This document shows, piece by piece, positions 1 to 6,978 of a stretch of 64,000 bases of DNA (within the stretch, counting starts at the first letter, position 1; each line of letters opens with the position of its first letter). Origin of the DNA: Planktotalea sp. (GTDB lineage Bacteria; Pseudomonadota; Alphaproteobacteria; Rhodobacterales; Rhodobacteraceae); contig CBFIGL010000013.1 of the NCBI GenBank assembly GCA_965662135.1, forward strand, positions 11,353 through 75,352. Reading direction: 5' to 3'. The translations under genes were made by a program, and so were the position numbers. The notes under the pieces are model-generated. The model worked only from the letters and a program-made list of their open reading frames with translations. It did not search any database and was not told the DNA's origin.

Positions 1-645
1 CAAAAAACCAAGGTTGAGGCGAATTTGGCTGAAACGCTGGACGAGCGTGAATTCACCGTAGGCGAACTGGAGGACGTCAAATCCCAAATCATGGCCATGG
101 ACCCTGCCATCATCGCGCTGGAAGGTAAGATTGCCGTAGAGCAAGACGCGGCTGCGCGTACCAAACTTGAAACCGAATTGGCCGATATGAACGCCAAGTA
201 TAACGAGCTGGTACAGGACGAGCAGGTAAAACTAGCGAAGTCCCAAACGCTGGAGCGCTACATCGAAAAGGGCAAAACCTGGATCGACTCGCTACAGAAC
301 CAAGCGGCGACGCAAATGGTGCTGATCAACAAATTGCAAACGGACACAAAGCAGCGTGTCGTTCTTTATGATGCGCTGACCAAGTCCTTGAAGACCGCGC
401 AACAGCAAGATGTGGCGCACCGGATCAACGAAATTGGTGTTGAAACAGACCAAGAAGCGCAAACCGCCATGGCGGCGATTGGCACGGCGACGAACCAGCG
501 TATGGCCGACATGATGGAAGCGCATGAAGATCACATGGTCTTTGCGCGTGATGTGCTGGAAGCGAAAGCGAAAGCGGACGAGCGTTTTGCACGCCGCTTT
601 GCGCAGATCGTCGAGAAGCATGATAGCAATGCATATGGTGGGTAA
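1..645 (+). CDS. Helical/coiled-coil protein, distant TelA/KlaA-like (5'-partial)
   Basis: Frame is open from nt 1 (QKTKVEANLAET...), so the gene starts before the window. All-helical, Q/E/K/A-rich. LINKLQ...VLY...QQQ resembles the TelA C-terminal pattern as I recall it. Confidence 0.6.
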   Translation, partial: QKTKVEANLAETLDEREFTVGELEDVKSQIMAMDPAIIALEGKIAVEQDAAARTKLETELADMNAKYNELVQDEQVKLAKSQTLERYIEKGKTWIDSLQNQAATQMVLINKLQTDTKQRVVLYDALTKSLKTAQQQDVAHRINEIGVETDQEAQTAMAAIGTATNQRMADMMEAHEDHMVFARDVLEAKAKADERFARRFAQIVEKHDSNAYGG

Positions 646-1779
646 GTGAACGAAGGAACTGACGTCTCGCGCGATCACGCAGGTCTTGGTGACGCCTTTG
701 CTTCTCGCCGTTACTTTCGCAAGTTCGCCAAGATCACCCAGCATATGATGCGGGTTTCTGCAGTGATGCAGGCGGAAGGACGGCTGAGCAAAGCCGACGT
801 CGAAGTGATTACGCGCTATGTGACGAAACTCTCGTTCACGTTTCGCGCGCTGAGCATGAAATACCTGCTCGTTGGGCGCGACACGGGGCAGTTCTTTGGC
901 TCACTCTCGATGGACACGCGCGAAAGCGGGTTTCCGGTGCATCGCGAATTATTGACCATGGCCAATGACGCGGCGCAGGCGGAAAAGCATCTGGCGAACA
1001 TGCCCTCTGTGACGGAATACAAAGAACAAATGGTGCGCCGGATTGTGGGCGATCAGGAATTGCCGACGAAGCTGCAATTCGCCTTGTCTCAGAGGCTTTA
1101 TTACGAGGAAATTGCGCGCGGTGAATTGTTCTGGGCGCAGAATGACCCTGAATGCGTGTGGGTGGAAAATCTTGCTGATGGGCGGCGCAAATTTCTGATC
1201 CATTGGGCGGTTTATGACAGCCAGGTGAACCTTCCAGTGGTCTATCTGATGGAAATTGAAGATAGCGGCAAAGCTGCTTTGCCAAAGGATCAGTATCGCT
1301 GGCCAGAAGTGCAAGCGCATCTTATGGGGCAAGCGCTCGCTGGGCTCAAACTGCTCACGATCGCAAAAGGGTTTGATGAGGCGTTCAACGATCTGCACCC
1401 CAAAAGCCTGCGACGCTTCCATCTTGGTCCAATGTATTCCCATGGGTACACACGCCAGACTGGCCCTTTGCGCGAGGTCTTGGAAGAAGCGCGCGCGCCA
1501 GAAGGCGAAGATTGGGCGCTGGCGTGGACGCGCGAAGAGCTGGAAAGCGAGCGTGTGGAGAAAGAACGCGCTGGCTGGTTTGGCACTGTGGATCGTGAGG
1601 TCTTTGCACTTGATCCTTTTGCCGGACGCGGCGCTGATACGGGTGCGACGCGAATGGAACGCAGCATTATTCTGCCCGAGCGCCCCTATCAGGTTTTGGA
1701 AGAAAAGAACCCGCCCGGGTTTTCATCCGTGCGCAAATTTGTTGTGGGCGCGGGTGGGCGTGTGCTGAGTTATCGCTAG
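646..1779 (+). CDS. Hypothetical protein, 377 aa
   Basis: Long ORF with host-like codon usage. Its GTG start abuts the upstream TAA. No recognisable motif. Confidence 0.85.
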   Translation: MNEGTDVSRDHAGLGDAFASRRYFRKFAKITQHMMRVSAVMQAEGRLSKADVEVITRYVTKLSFTFRALSMKYLLVGRDTGQFFGSLSMDTRESGFPVHRELLTMANDAAQAEKHLANMPSVTEYKEQMVRRIVGDQELPTKLQFALSQRLYYEEIARGELFWAQNDPECVWVENLADGRRKFLIHWAVYDSQVNLPVVYLMEIEDSGKAALPKDQYRWPEVQAHLMGQALAGLKLLTIAKGFDEAFNDLHPKSLRRFHLGPMYSHGYTRQTGPLREVLEEARAPEGEDWALAWTREELESERVEKERAGWFGTVDREVFALDPFAGRGADTGATRMERSIILPERPYQVLEEKNPPGFSSVRKFVVGAGGRVLSYR

Positions 1780-1842
1780 GCTGCACTGCTGGTCACTGCG
1801 GATGAGTTTATTGGCAAGATGAAGATATTTGGAGTGATTTAG

Positions 1843-3774
1843 ATGAGCGTGACAGCGGATCAGATGGAACTACGTGAAGCGGATATCGAGAAGCATTACG
1901 GTGCGGCCTTGGCGTTGTTACAGGGATTTGATCATGCGCCGCGTGTCGCTAAGCCACGCGAGGCGGCGGTTGAGAAATCTGCGGGACTTGGCACGCGACG
2001 GCGGTTTCGCTCGACCACGCCGGGTCTGGTCACACGCTCGGCTGTGCGCGCTGAAGGGGTGCAGCTGTTGGCGCGGATCGAGGGCGCTGATGGGGGCGAG
2101 GCGCTGGTGTCGCCTGCGCAAGCGACGGTCATGAACGCACTGCGACGCGCTTTGGCGATTTCGATGGCTGTTGCCGAGAACTACGCTGAACAGGTTGGTT
2201 TGTCCGATTTGAAACGTGCCAATTTAGAGGGTGGTGTTTCGGCTGGCAAAAAAGCGGAATTTTCCGAGATGCTTACGGCAGAGGCGCTGATTTCGCTTTA
2301 TGTGTTTGCCTCGGCGTCTTCGGTTTTGCTGGTATCGCATGCGAGCGAAGTGTCAGTGACTTTGGGCGATGTTGAGGAAATTTTGACCGACAACGCGCCT
2401 TTGGCCCTACATGGCGTGCTTTGGGAGTTGGATCAGGACATCGCGGATCATGCGGATGATGACCCTAAGCTGATCGCGACGGTAAGTGCCTACGCAGAAG
2501 CCCTGATGGACAAGATCGCTGCGCGCGCTGGGTCTGCGGGACGTCTGGAGGCGTTTACATCGGCCACTTGGAAGGTCGAGGCGGATGATTTCGTGGTCAA
2601 CGGCTTTAAGCCTGCGTCCAAGGGCAAATCGACAAAGCTGACCATGACCTTCAAGAAGCCCAATGAGGTTGTCGGCAACCACATCGCCAAGTACCAAGCG
2701 ATGAAGCTGGCCAAAATGCTCATGGCCTATGATTTCGAGCGTCGCTTGAACCCTTTCGCGGATCTTGGCGGGTTCATCTTTACTTTCATGGGCGATGGTG
2801 CGCCGGGGACGGGGAAAACCACGCTAATCCAGATGATGGCAGGGCTGATTTCGGGCTATTGCGAGACGGCGGGATATCCGTTCCGTTACCAGAACCTCTC
2901 CACCGACAACATCGACAGTTATCAAGGTAAATCCGGTCAAAACGCTAAGGCGTTTATCAACAATATCATCGATCCATCGGTGATTGGCTTTGGCACGATT
3001 GATGATATCGACCAGCTTGCGGGTAAACGCGGAGATCGACAGTCCAGCGCGGGGCAACTCGAAATTACCGCCGTGCTGATGGAGAGTTTCGCGGGCGCGA
3101 ACACCGTCGTGCGCGGGAATTGTACGTTTGGGATGTTTTCCAATTATCCCGAAAACGTGGACGATGCTTTGCGCCAGCGCGCCGGTGCGCGCTTCTTGGT
3201 GGATGGACCGCAAACGCGCGATGATTATATCGACATCCTTTATCTGCTCATGGGCAAGAACCACGATATTCCGCTGGGCGAGCATGATGTGTTCGAGGCG
3301 CAAGCGATCCAGAAGGCGGTTGCCGCCAGCTTTGCCAGCCATGGACGGCCACATGAGGAAGGATTGGCAGTGGTCTTTGACGCAGTGCAATCGCAAGTGG
3401 GCGAGTTGGATACGATTGCGAAACTGGGCACCTATTTGAAGGGTATTCAGGAGGCGGACGAACGGTTCACAGGCCGCGCGATCAAGAACATCACCGACGC
3501 CGTGAAAGTGCGCGCGATGGACTTTGAACTGCCCGATGAATGGATGGAAAAGCCTGATCTGTTCCTGTTCAAATCCTATGATCAGAAGAAAGGCATGATT
3601 TCTGAGCTACGTCAGCCGATCACGGTGGAGATGGTCATACAAGAGATCAACCGCTACGCCGACAGTGAGTTCCGCTATGCGGATAAATCCGATGAAGTCG
3701 CGATTGACGCGATGGTGCGGGATTATGAGCGCACGGAAGTGGCGAAGAAGCGTTATTTGGAGGGGAAAGCGTGA
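1843..3774 (+). CDS. AAA+ ATPase (classical clade) with ~270-aa helical N-terminal domain
   Basis: Walker A GAPGTGKT, pore loop DSYQGKS, Walker B GTIDDID, sensor-1/SRH SNYPENVDDALRQR. GGAG RBS upstream. Confidence 0.9.
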   Translation: MSVTADQMELREADIEKHYGAALALLQGFDHAPRVAKPREAAVEKSAGLGTRRRFRSTTPGLVTRSAVRAEGVQLLARIEGADGGEALVSPAQATVMNALRRALAISMAVAENYAEQVGLSDLKRANLEGGVSAGKKAEFSEMLTAEALISLYVFASASSVLLVSHASEVSVTLGDVEEILTDNAPLALHGVLWELDQDIADHADDDPKLIATVSAYAEALMDKIAARAGSAGRLEAFTSATWKVEADDFVVNGFKPASKGKSTKLTMTFKKPNEVVGNHIAKYQAMKLAKMLMAYDFERRLNPFADLGGFIFTFMGDGAPGTGKTTLIQMMAGLISGYCETAGYPFRYQNLSTDNIDSYQGKSGQNAKAFINNIIDPSVIGFGTIDDIDQLAGKRGDRQSSAGQLEITAVLMESFAGANTVVRGNCTFGMFSNYPENVDDALRQRAGARFLVDGPQTRDDYIDILYLLMGKNHDIPLGEHDVFEAQAIQKAVAASFASHGRPHEEGLAVVFDAVQSQVGELDTIAKLGTYLKGIQEADERFTGRAIKNITDAVKVRAMDFELPDEWMEKPDLFLFKSYDQKKGMISELRQPITVEMVIQEINRYADSEFRYADKSDEVAIDAMVRDYERTEVAKKRYLEGKA

Positions 3775-3866
3775 AGCGGATGCGGGACATACTCGGCTGG
3801 TTCTTTCTGGTGACACCTGTGGTTTGGGTGGTGCGTTTGTTTATACTGAAACGGGTTAAGCAATGA
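3771..3866 (+). CDS. Putative 31-aa single-pass membrane microprotein MKRMRDILGWFFLVTPVVWVVRLFILKRVKQ
   Basis: Translated by hand. GTGA overlap with the ATPase stop, GGAGGGG RBS, and ATGA overlap with the next gene. Hydrophobic core with basic flanks. Confidence 0.55.
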   Translation: MKRMRDILGWFFLVTPVVWVVRLFILKRVKQ

Positions 3867-4657
3867 TGTATTTTAGGCGAAACTGGCCTTGGATCGTAGG
3901 CACGTTTCTCACTCTACTTATAGGATGCTTTGCATACGTTAGCGCTTGGTTGCCTGCTTGTTATGAAACTTCCGCAGCCGTTATCAACTGCCCAACGAAG
4001 TGGTTCTACTTGAAACAATCGACACCAAACGAGCTTGGGGATACTCTTGCGGGATTTGCAGGAGCTTTGGCCTTTATTTGGATTATTGTGACCGTGGCAA
4101 TGCAAGCTATGGAGCTTTCAGAGCAACGCAAAGAATTTAAAAAAATGGCAGATGCGCAGACGAAGCAAGTTGACCTTTTAATTCAACAAGGAGAAATCTT
4201 TGCAGAAGAACAAAGACAACGCAAAGAACTCGAGACTGCAGAGCTGTTTCTAGAAATCTGTGAAGATGTGTTCGAGTTCTGTCGAAGTTTGGGATATGTG
4301 CGGTGGTTTAGCGACAGACCGAATTCAGTTGAATCGAAGATAAATCTAGAAGTTGAATTTGATGATAGTTGGGGCTGGGAACAGAAATTTGATAGCTTGA
4401 TACACCAGTATGATAGCGTAGATAAACTAAAGTGGCGATGCGAAGATGCTTCCCTTGAACCAGACATTTCCAAGCCAGAATATATTGTTAAACTCTTGGA
4501 AAGTCTAGGAAGAGTTCAGGAATTAGCACCATCGTTGTCTGAAGCCATGCTGCATAGGTACAATAGAATTGACATAATTTCATTGGTTGCACACGTTCAA
4601 GAACTTGATACCAATCCGGTATTTTGGATACCGCCAGTCGCTGAGGAAACACGATGA
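3863..4657 (+). CDS. AT-rich hypothetical membrane protein (2 TM + coiled coil + acidic C-terminal domain)
   Basis: 264-aa ORF, visibly AT-richer than its flanks. Motif PNELGDTLAGFAGALAFIWIIVTV then QAMELSEQRKE. Stop overlaps the next start (ATGA). Confidence 0.75.
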   Translation: MMYFRRNWPWIVGTFLTLLIGCFAYVSAWLPACYETSAAVINCPTKWFYLKQSTPNELGDTLAGFAGALAFIWIIVTVAMQAMELSEQRKEFKKMADAQTKQVDLLIQQGEIFAEEQRQRKELETAELFLEICEDVFEFCRSLGYVRWFSDRPNSVESKINLEVEFDDSWGWEQKFDSLIHQYDSVDKLKWRCEDASLEPDISKPEYIVKLLESLGRVQELAPSLSEAMLHRYNRIDIISLVAHVQELDTNPVFWIPPVAEETR

Positions 4658-6018
4658 TCCACCTCATCCAACGCGGCCTTATGTTTGGGAACCTGATCCA
4701 CGTCGCCGCACCCGCGCTGGTGGAGCGCTACAACCGTGCGCTCAAACATCTCACGCAGAACCAAACAAACCTCACCGAATTTCATATCGATATCTCTGGC
4801 TACTCGCCCGAGATTGGGGATGAGCTGGATGATCATCTCTACCTCAACCACGCGGGGGTGAACCGGCAGTTTATCCTACTCACCACCGATCAAAAGTCAG
4901 CACCTTTGCTCAACGCAAAGTTCTCCACCTCGCGCGAAATTCTTAAGGAATTTATAACCAAGAATGAGCCGCAACTCTTTGCGCTCACAGCGCGCGATGC
5001 GGTGGCGGGGGAGTTGGTGAACTCTGTCTATGCAGTGGATAGCCCTGTAAAACTCTTTGATATCAGGCGGGTCAAGATCGAGGCGGATACAACGACAGGC
5101 ACTGTTGCACAGGCCCAAGCGCTCGCCAACGACGTCGATCGCTTTATGCGTGAAGAAGATGCGTGGTTCGATGATGTGCTGATCGCGAACATGATCAGCA
5201 AGGCCAAGCGCACGGGCGATGTGACGCGCAATCCTGTACGCCTTGATCTGATGGAATTCGAGCAGCGCAACTTCTGGACGGCGCATTTTGGTGGGCTCTA
5301 TGTGTTCCAAGGGATGGATCATCCGGCGGTGATTTCTAGCGGGAGCAAAGCGGCGCTGGGCAAACTGCCGATCAAATATGTGTTCGATACGCAAGACCGC
5401 AATCAGATCGCGAAGTTCCTGGAATATAACGATCTGGTCGAACCGATTATGAAGGCGCGCGGCATAGATGCGGCAGCGATCCTGCGTCAGAAGATGGATT
5501 TCATCGTGATTGATACTGCGCAGGACAGCGGGATTGATCTGGCAGGGGCCACGCGCCGGGACATTCGCGCGCTTGCGCGGGGGCATGCGCAAGATTTGCC
5601 GGAAGAATTCCACGGTCTTGCCGACCTGCTGCGCTGGGCAGAGGAGGGCGGCAGTTGGCCACGCATCACCTCTGATCACCCTGCGTATTTCTACACGCTG
5701 CGCAGTGCGGACCACGGCGACCGCGACTTGGTGAACATGCTGTTGTCTCAGCTTAGCCCCAAAGACGTGCGCCAATTGTTTATTTGCCATAAAGAACTGT
5801 TCTACAAACTCTACGCCACATGGCATGACACCAAAAAATCCTATGTGGCGGATTTTCTGGATCGCGAGTATCAAGTGGACAAAGCAGCTGCGCGCGAAGC
5901 CTTGTTCGGGCATGAAGCCGAAATGGAACAGCCCGCACCGAAACGCGACGGTCCTTGGAGCGTCAGTGACAAAAAGATTGCCGCTGTGGGCCCTTGGGGC
6001 GCAGTGAGGGGGAGATAA
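4654..6018 (+). CDS. DUF6638-like protein
   Basis: N-terminus LIQRGLMFGNL...LVERYNRAL, plus IDISGYSPEI and FWTAHFGGLYVF, recalled from this family. Confidence 0.7.
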   Translation: MIHLIQRGLMFGNLIHVAAPALVERYNRALKHLTQNQTNLTEFHIDISGYSPEIGDELDDHLYLNHAGVNRQFILLTTDQKSAPLLNAKFSTSREILKEFITKNEPQLFALTARDAVAGELVNSVYAVDSPVKLFDIRRVKIEADTTTGTVAQAQALANDVDRFMREEDAWFDDVLIANMISKAKRTGDVTRNPVRLDLMEFEQRNFWTAHFGGLYVFQGMDHPAVISSGSKAALGKLPIKYVFDTQDRNQIAKFLEYNDLVEPIMKARGIDAAAILRQKMDFIVIDTAQDSGIDLAGATRRDIRALARGHAQDLPEEFHGLADLLRWAEEGGSWPRITSDHPAYFYTLRSADHGDRDLVNMLLSQLSPKDVRQLFICHKELFYKLYATWHDTKKSYVADFLDREYQVDKAAAREALFGHEAEMEQPAPKRDGPWSVSDKKIAAVGPWGAVRGR

Positions 6019-6019
6019 G

Positions 6020-6286
6020 ATGATCGCACTCGCACGCTTGCTGGTATTCGGGTTCCTTGGGCTATCTGTTGTCTACGTTTGTCTGTCGCTCTATTCGCGC
6101 TCTGTCCGCCGTGACAAGCTGGAAAAAGAGTGGGACGAAGAGGTCAGGGAAGGCGATCGCGAAGCCTTTGTGCAAGCGGGGCTGTTAGAGTATGATGGGT
6201 CCTTGCGCCGCAAGTTGATCCTTGGGGTCTATGTTGTCCCGATCAGTATCGTTTCGTTTATCATTTATGCCACGAATTTCATGTAA
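6020..6286 (+). CDS. Small 2-TM membrane protein
   Basis: 88 aa, two hydrophobic helices around a charged loop. Starts 1 nt after the upstream stop. Confidence 0.8.
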   Translation: MIALARLLVFGFLGLSVVYVCLSLYSRSVRRDKLEKEWDEEVREGDREAFVQAGLLEYDGSLRRKLILGVYVVPISIVSFIIYATNFM

Positions 6287-6299
6287 GGGAGCCTAATCA

Positions 6300-6920
6300 A
6301 TGGGCTATATAAAATGGGCGTTCTGGATCGGTTTCTGGGTCTTGGTCGCGTCCTTCTTTCACTATACGCTGCCGCAACACGACGTGGCGCGGATTACGGA
6401 CACTTATGAAAAGCGGATCGACTTTGGCGAGAATTCGATCTTCTGGGCGGCTGCTGACACAGGCAATGCTGTCACATCCGTGAACCGCGATGTGTTCTTC
6501 ATCCAAACGCGGCTGAGCAATGACAACGTGATGGTGTATCGCAACGAGGATACAGGCTGGGGATGGCCACCATATTTCAAGTTCGATACCACGAATTTGC
6601 AGGCTGAAGCATCCGATCTCAAATCAGTGGCTGAGACGCCGCAGTGGATTGTGATCAAACATTACGGCTGGCGCAATGAATTCATGTCGATCTTCCCGAA
6701 CGCAGTCAGCGTGCGCGCGGTGGATGATCCTAATGTGCGGATTATTCCGTGGTTGAATATCGGTATTCTGATCGTGTTCTTCGCATTTGCTTGGGCGATC
6801 TGGGTCCGCTGGCGTCGCTTCCGCGAAGCCAATATCGATCCTGTCTTGGAAGACGCAGGCGATAGCATCGCCAACACCAGTGACGGTGTGAAGAAATGGT
6901 TCGGAAGCTGGCGCAAGTAG
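6300..6920 (+). CDS. DUF1523 family membrane protein
   Basis: HYTLP, RDVFFI, VYRNEDTGWGWPPYFKFD and YGWR...SIFPN motifs, with N- and C-terminal TM helices. Confidence 0.8.
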   Translation: MGYIKWAFWIGFWVLVASFFHYTLPQHDVARITDTYEKRIDFGENSIFWAAADTGNAVTSVNRDVFFIQTRLSNDNVMVYRNEDTGWGWPPYFKFDTTNLQAEASDLKSVAETPQWIVIKHYGWRNEFMSIFPNAVSVRAVDDPNVRIIPWLNIGILIVFFAFAWAIWVRWRRFREANIDPVLEDAGDSIANTSDGVKKWFGSWRK

Positions 6921-6942: not shown

Positions 6943-6978
6943 AAAAGCCCCCGCCGAGTTGTTCGGCGGGTGCTTTTT
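6943..6978. terminator. Bidirectional intrinsic terminator
   Basis: AAAAGC-CCCCGCCGA...TCGGCGGG-TGCTTTTT hairpin between convergent genes. Confidence 0.8.

Follow-up and report, generated by a model that had tools for sequence, protein, structure and literature searches.

What do the genes encode that open a 64,000-nucleotide stretch of a draft Planktotalea sp. genome, hereafter the window? The window comprises bases 11353-75352 of contig 13 in this 3.1-Mb genome, and the nearest named relatives of its proteins belong to Planktotalea species of the roseobacter group. An earlier note, made from the letters of the DNA, had described at its start a set of co-oriented, mostly abutting or overlapping genes of unknown function ending at a terminator. 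Such a set is indeed present: seven genes and a 31-codon open reading frame (ORF), followed by a terminator-like hairpin (Table 1). The genes encode an all-helical protein (gene 1), a soluble protein (gene 2), an AAA ATPase (gene 3), a protein in a variable position (gene 4), a DUF6638 protein (gene 5), a protein with two predicted transmembrane segments (gene 6) and a DUF1523 protein (gene 7). It is near certain that this operon is real and conserved, and it encodes a machine so far undescribed.

The order gene 1, gene 2, AAA gene, gap, DUF6638 gene, gene 6 and DUF1523 gene is kept in all 19 Rhodobacteraceae loci fetched, one per genus, as expected from the earlier proposal of a single conserved operon. 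It recurs in 68-77 of 80 named roseobacter loci. Co-occurrence across genomes, the check that had been suggested, gave a similar picture: in a family sample of 201 genomes (one per genus), DUF6638 was found in 91 and gene 1 in 90, with 88 genomes common to both. The five discordant genomes are all cases of contig ends or incomplete assemblies. This gene arrangement is far beyond chance.

The degree of conservation differs among the genes. Median identities over the 80 roseobacter loci were 83.5% for gene 1, 76% for the AAA ATPase, 69% for gene 2, 67.5% for DUF6638 and 56-59% for the two membrane genes. Gene 1 (range 81-98%; 84-87% in other roseobacter genera) thereby exceeds not only the ATPase but also a flanking aldehyde dehydrogenase (median 79%, present in 55 of the 80 loci). 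Gene 1 is under extreme constraint.

Outside the roseobacters, gene 1, gene 2, the AAA gene and the DUF6638 gene are kept in order at identities down to 27-38%. These four genes were found in Mesorhizobium, in Sinorhizobium meliloti and on 0.9-Mb Vibrio plasmids, where they adjoin mfd, as well as on two metagenome contigs of 29-34% guanine-plus-cytosine (GC) content (identity 29-38% for gene 1, 27-30% for gene 2). Conservation of the neighbourhood within Alphaproteobacteria, also proposed as a check, thus extends over Rhodobacteraceae, Mesorhizobium and Sinorhizobium. Since the first four genes recur in order outside Rhodobacteraceae, the unit is a four-gene soluble core with lineage-specific membrane partners, and genes 6 and 7 are a lineage-specific addition in Rhodobacteraceae. 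A genome of another class holds a copy with a DUF6638 match at roseobacter level (E value 3e-187) and core proteins 60-71% identical to those of the window. At large scale few genomes have the operon: 3 of the 201 sampled from the class and 23 of the 401 sampled from the phylum. Gene 1 itself is present in about 570 genomes.

In the S. meliloti operon (CP090106.1), a DUF2333 protein is encoded by the fifth gene, directly after DUF6638 (L153:8794-10017). A distant relative of gene 1 (27% identity; L137:6364-7476) stands with a DUF2333 gene alone, beside thymidine kinase as in S. meliloti. The pairing suggests that gene 1 and DUF2333 are directly linked in function. Gene 2 was considered as a DUF2333 relative, too, but BLASTP found nothing and this candidate was dropped.

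The best defined member of the core is the ATPase (PF00004; E value 1.3e-11, 45.5 bits against a cut-off of 21.2). An N-terminal domain of about 300 amino acids is followed by the AAA module (residues 296-480), the lid and a C-terminal extension of about 160 amino acids; neither the N-terminal domain nor the extension has an assigned family. Among solved structures the ATPase domain of Yme1 is the best match (E value 7e-6), and fidgetin-like 1, katanin, Vps4 (E value about 2e-3) and Afg2 are near relatives as well. The earlier note had pointed to the aromatic pore loop SYQG, the KRGD region and an arginine finger in the second region of homology (SRH) as hallmarks of protein-threading enzymes. 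In the alignment, SYQG falls on the pore loop 1 YVG of Yme1 and AGKRGD sits after Walker B. We aligned 13 homologues from Rhodobacteraceae, Mesorhizobium and the low-GC contigs, i.e. from at least three lineages. Walker A (GDGxPGTGKT), pore loop 1 (S(Y/F)QG), AGKRGD and sensor 1 are conserved throughout, and so are SNYPE, ALRQRAGARF, the SRH arginines R445, R447 and R451 and the TGR of sensor 2. As these motifs are conserved, across phyla, the earlier motif calls are correct. With Walker A and B, an aromatic pore loop 1, the sensor 1 asparagine and the SRH arginines the protein belongs to the classical AAA clade, and its intact substrate-threading pore loop predicts a threading-competent enzyme.

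Walker A, both pore loops, sensor 1 and the SRH are shared with FtsH/Yme1 and with classical remodellers such as fidgetin-like 1, katanin and Cdc48/Afg2. The gene 3 protein differs from FtsH/Yme1 in lacking a peptidase domain and a predicted transmembrane anchor. It contains one hydrophobic helix (residues 146-164, in the N-terminal domain), which is probably buried.

Could the operon then be a bacterial ESCRT-III/Vps4 system, as had been proposed by analogy? In both cases an AAA ATPase of the classical clade, carrying an aromatic pore loop, adjoins a helical-hairpin protein, as in archaeal CdvB/CdvC, with PspA/Vipp1 as the bacterial relatives. Membership was, however, not borne out: the ATPase has no MIT or Vps4_C domain (Pfam, E value up to 0.1), and the gene 1 family gave no Snf7 or PspA match (E value up to 10). 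The Vipp1 match of gene 1 is no better than that of unrelated helical proteins. Moreover, the hairpin of gene 1 is much longer (74 + 94 residues) and lies in the middle of the protein, and nothing in ESCRT corresponds to the two obligatory partners, gene 2 and DUF6638.

Gene 1 had been called all-helical and TelA-like. The first part agrees with the structure model, which is all helix (predicted local distance difference test, pLDDT, 70) and contains the long hairpin at residues 117-287. A conserved segment (284-333) is of low model confidence. No predicted transmembrane or strongly hydrophobic segment and no hydrophobic head or tongue were found in the protein by hydropathy.

The likeness to TelA is weakly supported. 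The quoted segment LINKLQTDTKQRVVLYDALTKSLKTAQQQDVA is present in gene 1, but gene 1 and 39 relatives gave no match to the TelA profile (PF05816; cut-off 30 bits) even at E values up to 10. BLASTP of gene 1 against the genome's own TelA found no match either. In a six-frame search of the genome with PF05816, only this true TelA was detected. It lies on contig 7 (53157-54146, minus strand; L026:1447-2637, minus strand; E value 2.9e-107), is followed directly by a DUF2927 gene and is unlinked to the operon. TelA is a separate gene in 55 of 61 family genomes, independent of the operon. A comparison of profiles by hhalign gave a different picture. The gene 1 profile of 40 sequences aligned colinearly over 188 columns (52-269 against 87-278) with a TelA profile built from 31 genomes of one bacterial family (effective number of sequences 2.3), with a score of 28.8, a P value of 0.005 and a probability of 6.8%. 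Sixty block-shuffled TelA profiles scored 17.4 on average (standard deviation 2.7, maximum 23.0) and the reversed version 16.4, so that the match lies about four standard deviations above the shuffled null. The alignment includes the quoted segment. It pairs the W-E-x-F-V-G patch of gene 1 (conserved as ...WESFVGIF...) with W-W-E-K-L-I-G of TelA, and the block LINKLQ...VLY with LVTKIN...PLW.

Both proteins are all helical and of similar length (358 amino acids against about 390 for TelA/KlaB/YaaN). Both carry an aromatic W-E-x-(F/L)-(V/I)-G patch before the long helices and, later, an L(I/V)xK(L/I)...(V)xL(Y/W) block. In the ESM Atlas, 10% of the proteins in a sister cluster (364 amino acids; match by features 0.95 and by shape TM 0.62) are assigned to the TelA family. 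No solved structure matches TelA by sequence. Judged by these comparisons, gene 1 is not a member of TelA as the family is defined; a remote relationship is plausible but unproven. TelA-type proteins act jointly with membrane proteins, e.g. in the klaABC and ter loci. We know of no TelA protein paired with an AAA ATPase, and a literature search on TelA found nothing about such a partner.

For gene 2, no match was obtained with its profile against the PDB, and neither Pfam nor NCBIfam assigns a family to genes 1, 2, 4 and 6. The gene 2 protein is nevertheless 27-30% identical to the product of the same-position gene in the distant cassettes. A complex prediction for genes 1 and 2 scored 0.00; controls were not run, and the value is evidence neither way. 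The naming of the DUF6638 and DUF1523 proteins in the earlier note was right: the matches to PF20343 (E value 5.8e-237, 787 bits against a cut-off of 27, profile positions 1-438 of 439) and PF07509 (E value 2.5e-67, 226 bits against 23, positions 4-176 of 176) extend over nearly the whole or the whole profile. The DUF6638 model is alpha/beta (pLDDT 81; predicted template-modelling score 0.77), and fold searches found no convincing solved match (best Foldseek E value 0.48). A DUF6638 profile matches the thermosome apical domain marginally (1ass, E value 0.0055; residues 227-344 of the protein), which the fold searches did not see. Among the longer proteins searched no fused form of DUF6638 was present, which is weak evidence, and a literature search found no paper mentioning this family. 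DUF1523 occurs in the literature only in gene lists, including that of a mycobacteriophage gene toxic on over-expression.

Three to four membrane proteins had been expected to follow the ATPase. Hydropathy above a set threshold predicted no transmembrane segment for genes 1, 2 and 5, so that DUF6638 has to be removed from this group; the 31-codon ORF and genes 4, 6 and 7 do have such segments. They are found in gene 4 at residues 10-28 and 62-80 and in gene 6 on both sides of a basic loop. In gene 7 a single segment is predicted near the C-terminus (151-169), with a basic tail behind it; the N-terminus is hydrophobic but remains below the threshold, and the topology of its middle part of about 125 amino acids can only be inferred. 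The operon has no fixed set of membrane proteins, since gene 4 is swappable and genes 6 and 7 join the soluble core in one lineage. In roseobacter loci gene 6 is coupled to DUF6638 (median gap 0 nucleotides) and the DUF1523 gene to gene 6 (median 11 nucleotides).

The region upstream of gene 1 lies outside the window. Motifs in this region were counted in 81 loci and 800 background windows; three of them stand at constant distances from gene 1. The sequence CC(C/T)ATAT is found at about -40 before the start codon in 58 of the 81 loci compared to 39 background windows. It matches the -10 boxes of the genome's own heat-shock promoters of dnaK (CTTGCA-N17-CCTTATAT) and hsp20 (CTTGCA-N18-CCCATAT), the latter box being identical to the conserved element. 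At the same place S. meliloti has CTTGTC-N17-CTTTATAT. A palindrome, GATGTAAAT-N5-6-T(A/T)ACAT, is located at about -60 (51 of 81 loci compared to 7 background windows), and about 37 nucleotides upstream of it a TTTGC(A/G)ACA box occurs at about -97 from gene 1 in 36 of 81 loci. At L002:10820-10890 the palindrome overlaps the -35 site of the promoter, and it stands in the same place in L057-L136. The strict RpoH pattern CTTG-N15-19-CYTATNT was present upstream of gene 1 in none of the 81 loci, and we replaced it by a description of the -10 box only.

In S. meliloti 1021, SMc02733 contains a DNA fragment (about 2,587,012-2,587,177; PMC3687685) to which the envelope-stress regulator ChvI binds. 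By map position SMc02733 may be a gene of the operon.

Taken together, we tentatively favour an AAA machine that is induced by stress and acts at the inner membrane by remodelling the helical protein. Stress would turn the operon on through the heat-shock-type promoter. The AAA hexamer would then act on the helical protein, or on its assembly with gene 2 and DUF6638, on the cytoplasmic side of the inner membrane and would spend ATP on unfolding, extracting or recycling it. The small membrane proteins might serve as anchors or clients, and the envelope would be protected or remodelled under stress. The core is repeatedly coupled to small membrane proteins. By analogy, the operon would work most like Vps4 with ESCRT-III, or like a TelA-type membrane system with a motor added.

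Several observations weigh against this reading. Walker B reads D-D-I-D (residues 387-391), and an aspartate replaces the catalytic glutamate in 13 of 13 homologues. A DD Walker B is unusual for classical AAA proteins, so ATP turnover may be unusual; hydrolysis may be slow or regulated. Upstream of gene 1, the -35 position reads GATG instead of CTTG, and because it is the palindrome that stands where the CTTG should be, another regulator is indicated, which likely binds there. In the Vibrio-plasmid and low-GC versions the promoters are of the plain TTGACA/TATAAT type. These cassettes also lack any membrane gene, so that the link to the membrane is not universal. An interaction among the operon products is a proposal only. 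Finally, defence genes are nested in the operon in related genomes, and these fit a role in conflict at least equally well.

This last point leads to the variable positions of the operon. In about 70 loci the gaps between neighbouring genes had medians of 252 nucleotides (gene 1/gene 2; maximum 882), 68 (gene 2/AAA; 952), 782 (AAA/DUF6638; 1883), 0 (DUF6638/gene 6; 102) and 11 (gene 6/DUF1523; 131). The first and the third of these junctions are hypervariable slots for swappable genes.

The gene 1/gene 2 slot (0-882 nucleotides) contains diverse co-oriented membrane proteins of 85-167 amino acids in many roseobacters. It is empty in the window (junction 645/646) and filled e.g. in L082, L105, L107, L124 and L129. 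In the AAA/DUF6638 slot (2-1883 nucleotides), about 70 unrelated ORF clusters were found in about 89 loci, and the slot is empty in several genomes. Some of the cargo consists of small multi-transmembrane proteins of native GC content. Other cargo proteins have 170-340 amino acids and are encoded at 43-51% GC in loci of 54-61% GC (one example is 0.43 compared to 0.54-0.57 for the locus). Whatever their family, many cargo genes overlap the start of DUF6638 by 4 nucleotides.

Gene 4 of the window is cargo of this slot. It has a GC content of about 42-50%, visible as a dip in composition, and its cluster occurs in 12 of about 89 loci. It is absent from 18 of 19 other Rhodobacteraceae genera, the remaining one giving a partial match. 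The 31-codon ORF overlaps both the AAA stop codon (GTGA) and the gene 4 start codon (ATGA). It is open, with the ATGA overlap kept, in three Planktotalea-group genomes carrying three different cargo genes downstream. Its synonymous to non-synonymous substitutions amount to 3:6 and 7:11 in two other genomes, giving no clear sign of purifying selection.

One representative of each of 25 cargo clusters was scanned for its identity. Single clusters each matched Mrr_N and Mrr_cat (E value 1.7e-32), PDC-S02 (2.5e-32), PDC-S31/DUF2971 (7e-18), AbiJ_NTD4 (3.7e-10, exceeding the Pfam cut-off), an HNH/type IV restriction endonuclease-like domain (2.5e-5) and a thioredoxin-like domain. The Mrr cargo is probably the gene at L087:13968-14891, which also matches the restriction enzyme AspBHI. 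Cargo was located at L014:6462-7481 (minus strand), L073:13589-14299, L087:13968-14891 and L072:13762-14538 (plus strand in all three), with AbiJ_NTD4, PDC-S31/DUF2971, Mrr/AspBHI-like and HNH genes among it. In S. meliloti an endonuclease-domain gene and an insertion sequence (IS) element occupy the slot. The cargo families without assignment may be undescribed defence genes.

A fixed position between conserved genes, filled with diverse and often low-GC genes of defence type (Mrr, AbiJ-type, PDC-S02, PDC-S31, HNH) that vary among close relatives, resembles the known defence-gene hotspots. Defence genes nested in other operons are known from type I restriction-modification and BREX loci, and core defence hotspots are known as well. 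Here, however, both flanking genes belong to a single uncharacterised operon. The cargo runs in the direction of the operon, in most cases with a 4-nucleotide overlap into the start of DUF6638, and many cargo genes encode small membrane proteins of native GC and are no recognisable defence genes.

The main rival to the remodelling machine is therefore a role in conflict with phages. The helical protein would be a TelA/ClyA-like membrane-active effector, checked or armed by the ATPase, gene 2 and DUF6638, and the slots would supply sensors, effectors and independent defence genes. This must be taken seriously even if it appears somewhat unlikely. It would account for the defence-type genes of often lower GC between AAA and DUF6638, for the endonuclease gene and IS element at the S. 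meliloti slot and for the overlap that unrelated cargo shares with the DUF6638 start. The patchy distribution with its signs of transfer (3 of 201 genomes in the class sample, the copy in another class, the Vibrio megaplasmids) points in the same direction. ClyA-family toxins (AhlB/AhlC, SmhB, MakA, YaxA/XaxA, NheA) are, too, among the best fold matches of gene 1, but they are tied with syntaxin, arms of SMC proteins and chemoreceptors. Gene 1 differs from these toxins in lacking the hydrophobic head or beta-tongue and in sharing an operon with a cytoplasmic ATPase. Furthermore, the core has no match in PADLOC-DB 2.0 beyond a generic AAA hit (TRIP13, E value 1.9e-5) and a weak coiled-coil match; nothing was found there for gene 2, DUF6638, gene 6 or DUF1523. 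The core also differs from most defence systems: it occurs in single copy, purifying selection on it is strong, and its chromosomal surroundings are often alike, with the aldehyde dehydrogenase upstream in 55 of 80 loci. The empty slots indicate that the cargo is dispensable. As defence-gene hotspots also occur between ordinary conserved genes, the nesting may reflect merely convenient flanking homology.

In a more specific form, the core would be a new modular conflict or immune platform, in which the AAA unfoldase controls a TelA/ClyA-like membrane-active protein while membrane sensors or effectors are exchanged through the two slots, which would also harbour single-gene defence systems. We consider this unlikely. 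If it were true, close relatives would differ in what they sense or resist.

Alternatively it might be that the operon has no primary membrane role and encodes a cytoplasmic quality-control or assembly chaperone. In that case the AAA protein would be a heat-shock unfoldase or disaggregase, and gene 1, gene 2 and DUF6638 would assist it with a specific client, as adaptors or co-chaperones. The -10 box shared with the dnaK and hsp20 promoters is in line with this, as are the predicted solubility of all four core proteins, the core-only cassettes without membrane genes, the Yme1/FtsH module as nearest solved ATPase and the thermosome match of DUF6638. That match is, however, marginal and not seen by fold searches, and Pfam and NCBIfam detected neither a peptidase nor a recognised chaperone domain. 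A chaperone would also not explain why tight coupling to small membrane proteins recurs in three lineages of Alphaproteobacteria, and we regard this reading as distinctly improbable.

That the genes are neighbours by descent only, without joint function, or partly not real is hardly credible: nothing specific speaks in favour of it, and it is opposed by order and co-occurrence from Rhodobacteraceae to Vibrio plasmids and low-GC contigs at 27-38% identity, by the overlapping start and stop codons and by the hundreds to thousands of conserved homologues of every core gene.

The features of the operon are compiled in Table 1. The window edge cuts gene 1; the complete gene spans contig positions 10921-11997 (L002) and starts with an ATG 432 nucleotides before the window, behind the ribosome-binding site GGGAGA. 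Since its upstream neighbour, a metabolic gene, is divergent, the operon begins with gene 1. The junctions along the operon amount to 0, 63, -4, -4, -4, 1 and 13 nucleotides, the 63-nucleotide gap preceding the ATPase gene and the other two spacers lying near the operon end. By its stem and the T-runs on both strands, the hairpin behind gene 7 would act as a bidirectional intrinsic-terminator-like element closing the operon.

Table 1. Features of the operon at the start of the window (positions are those of the window)
Feature	Position	Strand	Description
Gene 1, 3' part (214 codons)	1-645	+	All-helical protein, remote TelA-like profile match
Gene 2	646-1779	+	377 amino acids, predicted soluble, no family, no solved relative; second core gene
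Gene 3, classical-clade AAA ATPase	1843-3774	+	643 amino acids; PF00004
31-codon ORF	3771-3866	+	Predicted peptide with a single transmembrane segment
Gene 4	3863-4657	+	Low-GC cargo; predicted protein with two transmembrane segments and a helical cytoplasmic tail
Gene 5, DUF6638	4654-6018	+	454 amino acids, predicted soluble, alpha/beta; PF20343; fourth core gene
Gene 6	6020-6286	+	88 amino acids, two predicted transmembrane segments, basic cytoplasmic loop; lineage-specific membrane module
Gene 7, DUF1523	6300-6920	+	206 amino acids; PF07509
Terminator-like hairpin	6950-6970	both	9 pairs, 7 of them G-C; T-runs on both strands

By the family tests the operon belongs neither to ESCRT-III/Vps4 nor to TelA nor to any PADLOC system, and we place it far from the systems described so far. 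For three of the four core proteins there is no match to a characterised family, and gene 1 and DUF6638, for which models were made, match no specific solved fold. Nevertheless the four genes keep their order in abundant marine roseobacters, in rhizobia (among them the model organism S. meliloti) and on Vibrio megaplasmids, with a helical protein conserved like housekeeping enzymes. A dedicated AAA motor whose partners are strongly constrained suggests that a process at or near the membrane has so far escaped study. To our knowledge TelA has no known mechanism, so a TelA-like protein combined with an unfoldase could open that old question. New here, too, are the two cassette slots, which represent a new hotspot for finding defence genes, perhaps new ones, in Rhodobacteraceae.

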